From Octopus vulgaris (taxonomy: Eukaryota), in assembly GCA_951406725.2 (NCBI GenBank), contig OX597826.1:52576001-52640000 (forward strand): a DNA stretch of 64,000 nucleotides. The letters are read 5' to 3'. Shown here in pieces: positions 26,783 to 35,719 of the stretch. Within the stretch, counting starts at the first letter, position 1. Each line of letters starts with the position of its first letter. Both the position numbers and the translations under genes were made by a program. Below the pieces are notes generated by a model. It was not told where the DNA came from. It saw nothing but the letters and a program-made list of their open reading frames with translations, and ran no database searches.

Positions 26783-28003
26783 TTGGCTGACCGGTTCGCG
26801 GAACACCTTCGTGACATCCACCTTGCGAACGACACACCGGTCTCACGCCATTTCTGCTCCACCGGTCACTCCTTGCAACACCTATCTGTGTTCGGTTTGT
26901 CCTTACACAGAGGCCATCCGGATTCCCGTTTGCGCCGTGAACAGGAATTAATCTTCTCTCTTCGCTCTTATACGCCATTTGGTCTTAACTCTCCCCCCCT
27001 CCTCATCTAACCCCCTCTCCCCCTCCTCACCTATCCTTTCTCCCCCGACCCCTACTTCTTCAGTCCTTCATCCTTTCACCCCTACTCCCCTTCCCTTCTT
27101 CCCTCTTTCTCCCTCCCTCTTCCCCTTCCCTCTGCTCCCTCACTCCCTCTCTCCCTTCTCTCTCCCCCTCTCCCTCTTTCCTCCTTCATCCCCCTCCTCC
27201 CCTTCCTTCTCCCCCATCATCTCCTCTTCCCCCTTCTCCTACCCCTCTTCTTCCCTCCCCATCTTCTTCCCCTCCCCTTCTCTCCCCCCTCTTCTCCCCC
27301 TCCCCTTCTCTCCCCCTTCTTCTCACCACATGACTTTACACATCACATCACATATGATGTGCCATACTAATACACACACCAGCTAATACATACTAATACG
27401 TACTAATACATACTAGTACATACTAATACTTACACCAACCCTATACATACACACGTCCAGACTCCGCATACGCACTTATACTCTCTCACACACACACACA
27501 CACACCTATACATACCAATACGTACTAATACATACTAATACATACTAATACATACACCAACCCCATACATACGCACGTCCAGACCAATCCTACGCACTAA
27601 TACTCTCTCATACACACACACACACACACACACCCTTATACATACTAATACATACACCAACCCTATACATACACACATCCAGACCCTCCCACGCACTTTT
27701 AGCTGGTCCCTCAACCCTTTTATCAACCCTATTATCTCCCCTTATTTCGCTCTCGCGTCTCATGTTTGATCTTTGACCTCTGGCCGAAATCAGATCGCCA
27801 TGTTGATTCGTTAGCTACTGCACGCATTTTTTTCTCTCCTTCTTTCTGTGTTTTTCTCTCTCTGTGTATCTTTCTGTTGATGAGCGTAGGCTCGAAACGT
27901 TAAAGACTTGTTTTATTTATATTTCCTGAGCGCCATACTAATACAATTGTTCGTTTGTTTTCCACCTGCCTTCGTCTTTTGTTTATTTTCATAAAGCTTC
28001 CCG

Positions 28004-28005
<2 letters not shown>
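26783..28005 (+). mobile_element. Second copy of the Neptune-like PLE 3' end
   Basis: Near-identical to 14578-15794 with the same 3' terminus GCTTCCCGTT; ORF ends FGLNSPPLLI* at 27010; flanked by (TA)n. Confidence 0.93.
27869..27906 (+). ncRNA. Minimal HHR-like motif, CUGUUGA core (copy 2)
   Basis: TCTTT-CTGTTGA-T-GAGC-GTAG-GCTC-GAAA-CG-TT-AAAGA. Confidence 0.7.
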
Positions 28006-28065
<60 letters not shown>

Positions 28066-28068
<3 letters not shown>

Positions 28069-28458
28069 CTTAGGGGTAGCCATATTGAGATGGCAAATAT
28101 ACGTCACGATGTGTTACCGCTACTGTATATAACTCACTTTGATATTTATCATTGTTTGATTTCACTTTTTCAATATCAGCGACAGTGGACGCTGGAAAAA
28201 GTATAAGTATTTGTGAAGGAAATCTAATTCTCGGCGACAACTATGATTGTCACACGCTGACGAGTGGTCAATACCTCGAAACTCGAGTCCGTGTGTATCA
28301 TAAGTTGAAGACGGGAAGGATGACTTCCCTTTGCAAATACTGACAGGACACAGAAAGTGTGTCTATGGCCAGCTGGAGGAGTGTGTCCTCCTGGTGCTAA
28401 AAACTACAGTAGCATCCACCCTTAGGGGTAGCCATATTGAGATGGCAAATATACGTCA

Positions 28459-28462
<4 letters not shown>
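28066..28462 (+). mobile_element. Retrozyme-like non-coding element: 352-nt unit plus 45-nt terminal direct repeat, in (TA)n
   Basis: ACCCTTAGGGGTAGCCATATTGAGATGGCAAATATACGTCACGAT at 28066-28110 and 28418-28462; central canonical HHR; several hairpins. Confidence 0.8.
28251..28295 (+). ncRNA. Canonical type I hammerhead ribozyme
   Basis: CACACG-CTGACGA-GTGG-TCAATA-CCTC-GAAA-CTCGAG-TC-CGTGTG; GUC cleavage triplet; palindromic stem III. Confidence 0.92.
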
Positions 28463-28513
<51 letters not shown>

Positions 28514-28516
<3 letters not shown>

Positions 28517-29785: not shown

Positions 29786-30480
29786 TTTCATTTCATTTCA
29801 TTTCATTTGAGTTTGAGTCCATGCTCAGGCCAAGTCGAAGACTCCGCCCTCAGAGTCTGGTGTGGTTGCCAGGTTGTATTCTCTGTTTAATTTTGACATG
29901 TGTAGGAGCGAGTTTGAGTCAGTTTGTGCTCGTTGTGTATATCCTGGGAGATGGGGTTCATCTCTAATGGTGCTTAAGTATCTATCCAGCTGCAATTTGA
30001 ATGATTCCACACTGCATCCTGATAGATTTCTGACATGTACCGGAATGGAGTTGAATAGTTGTGCTCCTCGAACCAACAGACTTGATTCTCGCAGGGTTTT
30101 TGCTGCCTGGCCAGCCTTTTTGTTGATTGGTGGTAACTGGCAGCGTCTTCCGTGGCGCAGTGAGTGGTAGGTTTTGATACCAAAGTTTGGCACCTTTTGC
30201 TCTATCATTTTCCAAATGTATATAATTCGGTATCGCTCAAATCTTCTTTCTATTGAGTACATCCTCAAGGTTTTGAGTCTTTGCCAATAGTCCAGGTCCC
30301 TCGTTTCTGAGAAGTATGAGGTAAAATTTCTTTGGAGCGATTCCATCTTAGATAGTTGGCCCTTTGTTGTTAGTGACCACAACTGAGAACAGTAGTCAAT
30401 CCTTGGAAGTATCATACTGTTCCAGAGGGTTTTCATTGTTGAGGTATCTCTTGATCTGAAGGTGCACAAGATCCACCCGC
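29786..30480 (-). mobile_element. 5'-truncated CR1-clade LINE 3' end with (AAATG)n tail
   Basis: ORF 29825-30469: IDYCSQLW, LDYWQRLKTLRMYSIERRFERY, LDRYLSTIRDEP..PGY...NSL. Confidence 0.92.
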
Positions 30481-31016
30481 TATTTAAATAATAGCGAAGA
30501 AGATCGAAACTTTTTCACAAATGTATGTCTTTTATGTAAGTTTAGGTATTGCATCTTTTGCCCACCTCATATTATAGAAAGAAGAATCATCACTTGTTTT
30601 GGTGAAGTTATTAAAGGGTGAGGGCAGAGAGTAGACTGCTCATCTCATATAAACTATAGTGCAAACTTACAGCTCTTTTGTTAAAAGCTTACCGAAATTG
30701 AATTTGTTTTCCATTATTTAGTGGTCAATAAAATTAGCATTAATATATTGAAATTGACGCAAATATTTATACCCTATTTGTTTTATAATATCATTTAACT
30801 AAAACCGGAATGGATACCACTGTAAATTCGGTAGTTTGGATCGTTTTCCTTATGAATATGTATGTACTATGCATATTTATAAACATATGCATATATGTAC
30901 ATACCGCCATTTATGTGTCATAAAATATGCATTTACCCTGTTGGAAAGTGGGATACCAATTTATTTTATTGATTTCTTTATTTTTAGAAAAAAATCTCCC
31001 CATTGACACAATATAC

Positions 31017-33029: not shown

Positions 33030-33088
33030 TTCATTCACCTACTTAAATATTTTTATACAGTTTCATTGAGAATCTGCTAACTTAACCG

Positions 33089-35719
33089 ATGCCGCAAATG
33101 GAGTTGTTCGATATTAACGCTTCCCTTAAGGACATACCAATACCACCAAAGGAAGCCTTCCTTAAGGAAATGGTTAACAAAACAAATGCATTTATCATCC
33201 GCATCAGATGGCTCGCATTCTTCCATGATAATGAGGACATAAAACGGAACAGTAGCGACGTATCCCTTCAATATGATAAACTTTTTAAGTCGAGGGGAAC
33301 CCCTCCACCAAATCCTAGACTGAAGAAATTTGTAGATGATCTGTGGAACATCGTAAAAAATATTAAGTTTCACAAATCACCCCTAAGAAATAGACACCTT
33401 AAATACCTTGATAAAATCACTAAAGACATTAACAGATTGGACGCTATCCTGGTCCAATCGGATAAAACCAGGAATATATATAAACTTACAAAGAACCAAT
33501 ATTTAGAACTATTCAAAAGAGAGATACAAAAAAATTACAGGACAACAAGTAAAAACAAACTCAAACAGGCCAACTTAGAAATTAAGCAAATCATGGAGAC
33601 ATATGGATTACAAATGAAAACACAACCGTTGAACCCTAGACAACCAAGATTCATCGTCAAGGACCACAAACAGAACTTTCACACAAACCCGGCATTGCGG
33701 CTCACATGCCCTTCTAGTTCCGACATCGATATCCTTAGTAAGTACATTTTAGATAAATATATACCCACATTAATCAATAAGTTAAAACTTAGCTTATGGT
33801 CTAACTCTACTCAAGTCGTAGAGTGGTTTAATTCTATTAATGATAAGGCAAACACTAAATTTATACAATTTGATATATCTAGTTTCTACCCTTCAATCAA
33901 CCCTAGTGTAGTTAATAAGGCCCTATGGCACGCGCACAATAAGGCAGTACTCTCCAGGAATGAAATTAATGTGATATTAGCAGCTAGAAAGTCTTTCATA
34001 CAGTTCGATAATAAGTTATGGGTCCGTAAAGATACTCCTAACGAGTTCGATGTACCAATGGGAAGTACAGACAGCGCTCAGATAGCCGATTTGGTCGGAA
34101 TTTATATTCTCTATGAACTAGCCGACCAATTTCCGGACATCTGTGGCGGTCTATACCGAGACAATTGTCTGCTTTACCTCCATAATGCTTCGAACCAAAA
34201 AAAATACAGAGGGTTAAGAATAGATTAGCTAGATTCTTTAGTAGAATGGGCTTGAATATAGTTTTTGATGATGAATTGACTAAAGCCAACTTCTTAGATA
34301 TTACCCTAAATCTGCAAAATAATTCGTACTTCCCTTACCATAAGCCTTCTACTAATCTTAAATATATCAGCATTTTCAGTAATCATGCCAAAACAATTAC
34401 CGATAATTTAGTTTAAAATATTTCCTTAAGACTTTCAAAATTATCTGCTAATGTTGACATTTTTAACGAAAAGGCTGAATTTTATAACGCCGCCTTGTCA
34501 AAAGCCGGGAATAAAAATAAACTGTCATACATCGATCCAGCCCATTCTAATCCAATATATATTTCCCAGAATAAGAAAACTCATAAAAAATTGAATAGCG
34601 ATAATTGTGGATTTGGTTCTAACCACGTCGGCACCTCTGTACATAAGATTAATAACTTACGGACCTGGGGTTGCAATCAACACCCAACCCCAAATTCACA
34701 CCATAGAAAATTTCCCTTTACTGTGAAAAGTAACACGGTGAGTAATTCTAAATCTACAAAAACCTATATCTGGTTTGTTATACCTTTCGGAAAACAACTC
34801 AAATCGAAACTTCCCTCACAGTTCCGTGAAGCAGTGGCTAGGAATTCTCCCAGGAATTCTAGGTATTATTCTATTATAAATTCACATAAGGTGAGAATTG
34901 CATTCTCTAACACTAGAAATCTTTCACAAATTATCGCTTCCCATAATAACAAGCTGCTAAACAGAGATCCTTCACCCGGAAGATCCAACGCTATTTTTAT
35001 CGATTCCAACCAAACATACAATAATATTAATAGAAATAGTATTGATAGTAGCAACATTCGTAGCAACGTTAGTGTAGGCAATGATAATATTAATAATAGC
35101 ATTAGTCGGGCTGATAACAATGATAGTGTTGATGGTATCAACAACAACATTTCTATTGCCAGGAATATTGCCGGTTGTAATGCAATTAATATTAATAATA
35201 ATAATGATAATAATAATAGAAATAATGTACGGGTTAAAACTAACAGTAATATTAACAGCAATCATATCATTAATAATTCAGTTTCAATCTCCGAAGGAAA
35301 CCATAACAGATTAAGGTTCTTGTCCAGATTAAGATTCTTGTCCAAAAATTAAGAATACAATTTACCAATGTAGAATTTCTACCGGTACCGTTGTCTTCTT
35401 TTATATTGGGGCAACAACTTCCAAATTATCAGAGAGAATTTCAAATCATTATTCAACGTTCCGAGATAAGAGAAAACAACAGAGCACAGGACTAAGTAAA
35501 TTAGTTTGGCGTCTTAAGGACAATAATATAACTTTTAAGCTGGATTGGTTCATATTGTCTGTATCCTTTCCTTTTGATAAGGGCAGGAAATTTTGCGGAA
35601 TTTGTATTTCCGAGCTCTACCATATAATTTTCCCCAAGTTCCATTTAGTTAACACGTTAACAGAAAAATCCTATAAATGTATGCACTGGCAAAAACATAC
35701 TTTTCATTCATACAAATGA
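33089..35719 (+). pseudogene. PLE polyprotein (RT, thumb, Asn-rich linker, GIY-YIG endonuclease), disrupted
   Basis: SLKDIPIP..IRIRWLAFF, SDKT, DISSFYPSI, FDVPMGSTDSAQIADLVG, GLYRDNCL; frameshift ~34200; NFLDITLNL..YFPYHKP..SNH; stop ~34414; frameshift near 35345; TIYQCRISTGTVVFFYIG..ERISNHYSTF..CGICISE..KCMH; TGA 35717-35719. Confidence 0.9.

Follow-up and report, generated by a model that had tools for sequence, protein, structure and literature searches.

Non-LTR retrozymes of metazoans have been described (Cervera and de la Pena 2020, PMC7229834) as tandemly copied, non-coding units of about 350 nt (350–390 nt in mussel, 330 or 350 nt in axolotl) that carry a type I hammerhead with a short palindromic stem III, have a G+C content below 50% and a stable self-paired fold, and are accompanied by target duplications of more than 4 bp. 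Circles and cleavage were demonstrated for those elements, and mobilization by Penelope-like elements (PLEs) was proposed there and in a further study (PMC7761336). A circle model has also been formulated for PLEs (PMC4209133), and the reverse transcription of retrozyme circles by PLE enzymes was proposed between 2014 and 2020 (PMC4209133, PMC7229834). A 2026 preprint on the retrozymes of Xenopus and other vertebrates (bioRxiv 10.64898/2026.07.22.740005) treats them as non-autonomous users of the PLE machinery; its evidence is co-occurrence and homology to PLE pseudo-LTRs (pLTRs), with pLTR ancestry and phylogenetic support for the retrozyme–PLE tie, and it states that the mechanism is open. 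Eight of the nine Xenopus retrozyme dimers in that work did not cleave in vitro.

In vitro, the PLE protein of PAc, a Poseidon element of Anolis (Frangieh 2024, PMC11167929), makes nicks in both strands of AT-rich targets and extends them, starting at two internal RNA sites that delimit a tail of 30–40 nt. PAc is autonomous, a dimer was predicted, the RNA tested was linear and uncleaved, and the ribozyme was not needed for insertion. Penelope-like insertions in genomes (PMC8557442, PMC3846280) display 5΄ truncation, partial tandems, a head-to-head inverted and 5΄-truncated arm, a tail of 30–40 nt that is often found at one end, target duplications of 8–10 bp, and a bias toward microsatellites and TA.

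We analyzed an insertion of 397 nt in a stretch of 64,000 nt from Octopus vulgaris (the window), together with its relatives in the same genome. As far as sequence can tell, the element has all of the DNA-level features that the available text of PMC7229834 gives for animal non-LTR retrozymes; its unit of 352 or 353 nt, tandem and without an internal domain, falls within the 150–450 bp of such non-coding units, a class defined by the lack of LTR, PBS or PPT architecture, and the hammerhead type, stem III, G+C content, self-paired fold and target duplications agree as well. Whereas circles and cleavage were demonstrated there and are predicted here, the present family offers a footprint of insertion, namely fixed internal priming points, tails, inverted arms and TA targeting, of which the available text of that paper gives no account. 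The same footprint, without detectable pLTR homology, distinguishes it from the vertebrate retrozymes of the preprint, with which it would share non-autonomy and the use of PLE machinery. With PAc it has in common two putative internal initiation sites delimiting a tail, AT-rich targets and the presumed nicking of both strands by a dimer, and it differs in autonomy, tail length and the kind of RNA considered. The features listed above for Penelope-like insertions all have parallels here, but the octopus element has no ORF and up to six units per arm, its tail rule is strict (24/24) and its arms share variants. In the literature searched, a scope that leaves most subscription papers and repeat databases outside, we found no account of a cephalopod retrozyme, nor of retrozymes with tails, paired arms or fixed points of priming, and the element is a new animal non-LTR retrozyme with insertion-level evidence that we did not find in print.

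Our main reading, to which we assign a probability of about two in three, is that the window contains a 5΄-truncated copy of a non-coding, hammerhead-bearing family, likely a non-autonomous retrozyme copied by PLE proteins into (TA)n from an RNA that was likely circular. A preliminary description of the locus had proposed a retrozyme-like, hammerhead-bearing, non-coding retroelement moved by PLE machinery; the unit, the motif, the dispersal and the tandem copies support the former proposal, and the fixed 3΄ ends, tail rule, inverted arms and TA targets the latter. The interest of the family lies in its insertion record more than in its host, as the insertions supply countable evidence (fixed internal priming sites, a strict one-tail rule, one source for the arms and read-through of the ribozyme site) that connects a retrozyme with the biochemistry of PLEs and opens the rolling-circle question to experiment. 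A short RNA written into TA repeats by a telomerase-like enzyme has further interest as a cassette for RNA-templated insertion.

The insertion in the window and its predicted fold

The features of the insertion are listed in Table 1. The longest exact repeat is one of 45 nt with a period of 352 (28066–28110 = 28418–28462), and because its first A and last AT are common to the TA arrays, 42 nt of the redundancy are unambiguous. No long ORF was found in the 352-nt unit in any frame. The terminal repeat, the non-coding unit, the pure (TA)n flanks and two hairpins (GGACAC/GTGTCT at 28346/28359 and GGAGGA/TCCTCC at 28375/28386) had all been noted in the preliminary description and were recovered. 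This copy would have been primed at site 1 and then extended for 397 nt, so that the 45-nt redundancy would mark the stopping point, and it would be a single arm, only one priming having succeeded.

Table 1. Coordinates of the insertion, its parts and its surroundings (positions in the window)
Feature	Position	Strand	Remark
Whole insertion	28066..28462	+	One 352-nt unit + 45 nt; single-armed, 5΄-truncated
Repeat unit, positions 1–352	28066..28417	+	Non-coding, strong self-pairing; private changes at 28234, 28265 and 28395 relative to column majority
Second copy of unit 1–45	28418..28462	+	End 28459–28462 is the family's fixed 3΄ end, putative priming site 1
'Tail', unit 46–92	28111..28157	+	Found 3΄-terminally in the other arm type; end 28153–28157 is putative priming site 2
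(TA)n target array, left	28005..28066	.	Pure (TA)n
(TA)n target array, right	28461..28514	.	Pure (TA)n
Type I hammerhead motif	28251..28295	+	Predicted cleavage 28289/28290; stem III short, palindromic; T at 28265 breaks one stem II pair
Hairpin just 5΄ of site 1 (unit 14–29)	28079..28094	+	
Hairpin arm (unit 100–136)	28165..28201	+	
Long stem, hammerhead at tip (unit 141–276)	28206..28341	+	
Two hairpins (unit 282–298, 310–326)	28347..28391	+	Double change at one pair of the second, 8/19 rows
Neighbour, outside the element: 5΄-truncated copy of active PLE family, 4477-nt unit	26783..28005	+	Ends in the same TA array

The hammerhead motif consists of stem I (CACACG/CGTGTG), CTGACGA at 28257, GAAAC at 28278, CTCGAG at 28282 and GTC at 28287–28289. 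The Rfam model Hammerhead_1 (RF00163) covers all 45 positions with 26.7 bits (E = 3.6e-4), below its gathering score of 34, and no Rfam match within the window reached its gathering score. The motif had been called intact beforehand, which holds for the core and fails for stem II, one of whose four pairs is broken. At the column concerned (28265), A is present in 57 of 58 aligned units and T in the window copy; the 33-nt core occurs once in the genome in the window form and 439 times, as exact matches, in the common form (reversed control, 0). The T was computed to cost 1.6 kcal/mol in the hammerhead fold. The minimum-energy fold differed from the active hammerhead fold for both the window and the common forms, as is usual for hammerhead motifs. 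The core is present throughout the subfamilies examined, apart from point changes in some of the older rows, and a base pair of stem II is often C-A in the mid-age and old subfamilies, the ribozymes of which may be weak.

We computed the circular fold of the unit and obtained –113.7 kcal/mol (z = –5.4 relative to 100 dinucleotide shuffles); a second computation of the self-paired fold gave a z value of –7.5, and the minus strand gave –5.1. Both strands fold well, and hence the fold alone does not tell which strand is the RNA. In an alignment of 19 natural units (65–100% identical), 83% of the cells were paired, compared with 36–48% in slid controls, and double changes were found in 22 of 68 pairs; none of 500 shuffles reached the covariation score. 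The rows of this alignment are not independent of one another, some of them include unrelated flanking sequence at their ends, and one row served to derive the structure. The covariation thus supports the conservation of the fold, as support rather than proof.

Ends, arms and targets across the family

The family is large, young and well preserved. When the genome (2.8 Gb, 227 contigs) was searched at the DNA level, 40 of 3075 candidates were scored and yielded at least 123 matches; most were 98–99% identical, and copies are dispersed over many contigs. The commonest form in a positional sample is a 353-nt subfamily. A motif of the mid-age subfamilies occurs 1397 times in the genome, and an older family, about 70% identical, is represented by 1613 candidates; in a genome-wide Rfam search, the retrozyme family was not among the matches within the 73 scored candidates. 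One relative that is 65% identical (L273:36–1425) forms tandem and inverted arrays directly adjoining a mid-age copy, and is the source of many compensatory changes in the fold alignment.

Two sets of loci were compared, with arm coordinates curated by hand. Set A was drawn, in order of position, from the first 100 among the 439 core matches and comprises 58 loci, another two of these matches being members of set B; leaving out L038 as a likely duplicate of L033 reduced it to 57. Set B comprises 23 loci from the DNA search matches. In set A, 28 loci were single-armed, 24 were clean and two-armed, and five (L049, L059, L072, L085 and L099), which were set aside, were two-armed with one aberrant or damaged end. 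The 3΄ ends of 76 arms fell at unit 41–45 in 46 cases, at unit 84–93 in 28 and elsewhere in two. Every one of the 24 clean two-armed loci was head-to-head, with one end of each class and a spacing between them of 41–50 nt, and none of the five aberrant loci was 45/45 or 88/88. Single arms ended at site 1 (22), at site 2 (4) or elsewhere (2). Six clean two-armed loci of set B obeyed the same one-of-each rule, while two had a damaged end, and the same two ends were observed in the mid-age and old subfamilies, which are 65–90% identical. TA adjoined 72 of 77 canonical ends, so that the TA flanks expected at other copies were indeed found, and target duplications of 11–13 bp were present in the unique flanks of 5 of 20 loci checked.

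In the preliminary description, the terminal redundancy had been read as a free permutation, produced by one turn of a circle plus 45 nt, with different permutation points expected in other copies. This has to be given up, as 74 of the 76 arms have their 3΄ ends at two fixed points and unit 45 is one of these two, family-wide as well as in older subfamilies. The 5΄ ends, on the other hand, are scattered round the unit. An excess at unit 334–25 (24/75 against 12.5% expected), where the window copy also stops, is a weak hint, since the range was picked after the data had been seen and six of the ends belong to short first-pass arms.

By analogy with PLEs, we infer that unit 42–45 and unit 88–92 are internal priming sites of the PLE type (sites 1 and 2). 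The RNA just past site 1 reads AUGUGU and could pair with a TA primer via two wobbles; its last G is replaced by the target T in many copies. Priming at the ribozyme-cut end was rejected, as the ends lie 173–220 nt away from the cut. Judged by the same analogy, the two fixed 3΄ ends, the inverted arms with one tail and the TA targets are the 'tail' signature of PLEs.

Templates of the arms: circle, multimer or linear RNA

Arms longer than one unit, the tandem multimers that had been anticipated, accounted for 49 of 76 arms, and 17 exceeded two units; the longest measured at least 2122 nt, with up to six units. The arms crossed the predicted cut site 106 times with no pile-up of stops, as 1 of 75 5΄ ends fell within unit 222–228 (1.5 expected). 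The template was accordingly not a cleaved linear monomer. In set A, 12 loci had rare variants common to at least two units, and in seven of these loci they extended across both arms; set B added L019, L021, L022, L029 (both arms) and L030. Variants common to units and to both arms indicate one template or source for the two arms, and this common source was likely a circle.

Three loci carried a variant in only some of their units (L073, 4/6; L043, 2/3; L095, 2/3). The order in L073 was variant, none, variant, variant in one arm and variant, none in the other, that is, the same order in both arms when counted from the outer ends, and some templates must thus have had different units. These loci argue against a monomer circle, and fit a linear multimer and a multimer circle equally. 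The best-surviving alternative, which we regard as unlikely, is that PLE proteins used the same two priming sites on a multimer transcript that came from a tandem locus and stayed linear and uncleaved, and that circles, if made, were by-products. The L073 order would then reflect different units within one template, the absence of stops at the cut site is also expected of uncut RNA, and PLE insertion proceeds in vitro without any need for ribozyme cleavage (PMC11167929). However, copying an n-mer can neither lengthen an array nor spread a new variant to every unit, and rare variants do fill arrays: 5/5 units twice in L065, 6/6 in L073, 5/5 in L029, 4/4 in L019 and 3/3 twice in L089. For a variant to run through a whole array, there must have been a bottleneck of one unit and, after it, repeated copying. 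A circle provides for both, and a linear multimer could do so only through repeated exact template jumps; moreover, no indels were present at unit 224/225 among the listed variants. In our judgment, a circle was quite probably used in at least part of the events.

Of four sequencing runs that were only guessed to be RNA, two, from two organisms and one study, contained a contig of 383 nt of the 353-nt form. This length equals 353 + 30, the length of a cyclic path at a word length of 31, and tandem copies give the same contig. The stretch searched for was present in 20 of 24 listed sequencing runs, from eight organisms, and none of these was recorded as RNA.

We further considered a single priming event, in which the first cDNA would fold back and be copied into the second arm, and resolution of the intermediate by the endonuclease would give rise to the tail. 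Both ideas have been published (self-priming, PMC3846280; resolution, PMC8557442), variants common to the arms are expected of it too, the 5΄ points of L045 and L061 lie 0–1 nt apart, and the variants of L043 and L095 mirror about the junction. We nevertheless hold this explanation to be improbable: 8 of 24 loci have arm lengths that would be impossible without trimming of the junction, arm lengths are uncorrelated (rho 0.24, P = 0.26), the variant order in L073 matches from the outer ends and not from the junction, and both initiation sites have been seen directly in vitro for PAc (PMC11167929).

The possibility that the element is a pseudo-LTR, solo or tandemized, belonging to an autonomous PLE, or else a satellite spread by amplification of DNA, is largely refuted. 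In its favour, retrozyme–pLTR homology is reported in Xenopus (10.64898/2026.07.22.740005), a PLE adjoins the copy in the window, and in L085 the retrozyme is linked to the 3΄ region of an older PLE. Against it, each of the 49 arms that exceed one unit passes into a further unit and never reaches an RT-endonuclease ORF, the unit showed no homology to the sampled PLEs, and the PLE neighbour in the window has its own end and a TA spacer. Divergence from kin is about 5% for the PLE in L085 and about 0.5% for the retrozyme inserted there, which points to a later insertion with deletion, and dispersal, fixed ends, target duplications and inversions are not features of satellites. The preliminary description had tied a solo pLTR to ends shared by all copies together with an adjoining PLE ORF; 3΄ ends are indeed shared, whereas the ORF is absent.

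Under the preferred reading, in which PLE proteins copy a likely circular RNA, transcripts of tandem copies would be cleaved at the hammerhead and closed by ligation into circles of one unit and, in some cases, of several. Two PLE proteins acting as a pair would nick the two target strands about 12 bp apart, after which both nicks would prime on one RNA, the first at site 1 and its counterpart at site 2. Each reverse transcriptase would pass through the cut site for up to six units, the two cDNAs would then be joined head to head, and a single arm would arise where only one priming succeeds. The features of the unit, ends and arms are read directly from the insertions, and from them we infer the formation of circles by cutting and ligation, with cleavage predicted from the motif. 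A more specific form of this reading is tentative, and we rate its chance somewhat below even: the two reverse transcriptases of one Penelope-type dimer would prime 41–50 nt apart on a single circular ribozyme RNA and roll several times, and a Neptune-type driver would be involved through recognition of shape. If true, the insertions would provide direct genomic evidence that an animal circular RNA undergoes rolling-circle retrotransposition, would account for the tail and inverted-arm structure of PLEs in general, and would name a Neptune-type driver, with recognition by RNA shape and not by shared sequence.

PLE families of the same genome as candidate drivers

We examined four young PLE-type families as drivers. 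These families have ORFs and differ in their tails (none, 38, 42 and about 150 nt), and their presence in one genome would allow a single experiment in vitro to address the identity of the copying protein, the point at which copying starts and whether the protein rolls.

The family of the neighbouring PLE, with a unit of 4477 nt, is an unlikely driver, since the 37 loci examined and one tandem locus (one locus ended early) displayed a single 3΄ end and lacked inverted arms. This very active family has copies at 26783–28005, 14512–15794 and 16552–16623 in the window and at loci L154–L167, with frames of more than 1000 aa and a hammerhead-like motif of a variant minimal form; its single 3΄ end is fixed and runs into TA. 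One of its loci is a tandem of 3.3 units with 99.4–100% identity, which suggests that more-than-unit copying occurs in this autonomous element too. A second family, with an 899-aa frame, was rejected because its two ends lie about 150 nt apart and do not match. It is represented by a broken copy in the window (33086–35719) and by relatives at L117–L128, the young ones of which have a hammerhead-like motif with a long stem II and this unusually long tail. The third, with a 781-aa frame (RVT_1 + GIY-YIG), has a tail of 38 nt. An apparent motif likeness to this family, computed on a tail slice truncated to 28 nt, was not significant, being the lowest among seven tails at 27 of 1000 shuffles and not the top in a window scan, and was discarded.

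The remaining family, with an 811-aa frame, is one that we take to be Neptune-type, from its CGRSNCATC linker rather than from a tree. Its tail measures 42 nt, its targets are TA, and its copies are 99.1–99.8% identical; one arm carried the tail and the other lacked it in 8 of the 9 loci with both outer ends read, although these loci were partly chosen as two-armed. The linker motif marks the Neptune and Nematis clades (PMC8557442). Among the loci of this family (L328–L343), private variants were common to both arms of one locus in L329, L335 and L338, and the one-source rule for the two arms may be general to PLEs. In its ribozyme region the GAAAC half is kept, and the CUGA half was not seen. 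Among the four families sampled, this young family is the best-fitting driver, as a candidate only.

A comparison of the retrozyme with five PLE loci of the four families found no sequence similarity (best E, 0.1), and a PDB search with a PLE protein gave no match. L085 was also considered as a PLE–retrozyme chimera that might name the driver, and was rejected because its two parts differ in age. At this locus (L085:1–1131), the retrozyme is joined to the 3΄ region of an older PLE that lacks its last 55–100 nt, and the join is likely a later insertion with deletion.

Other sequences of related kinds were encountered. The window contains RT-like frames, judged by eye to be of LINE type, at 10514–11923 and 29825–30514. 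A canonical type I hammerhead of 45.5 bits at L168 (G000:C5:6546758–6546804, minus strand), which does not adjoin TA arrays within the 850 nt examined, may be a solitary ribozyme retained by the host. L169, L170 and L173 belong to a further hammerhead family, in which stem II has an insert of about 60 nt, and two of its motifs stand in tandem in L169.
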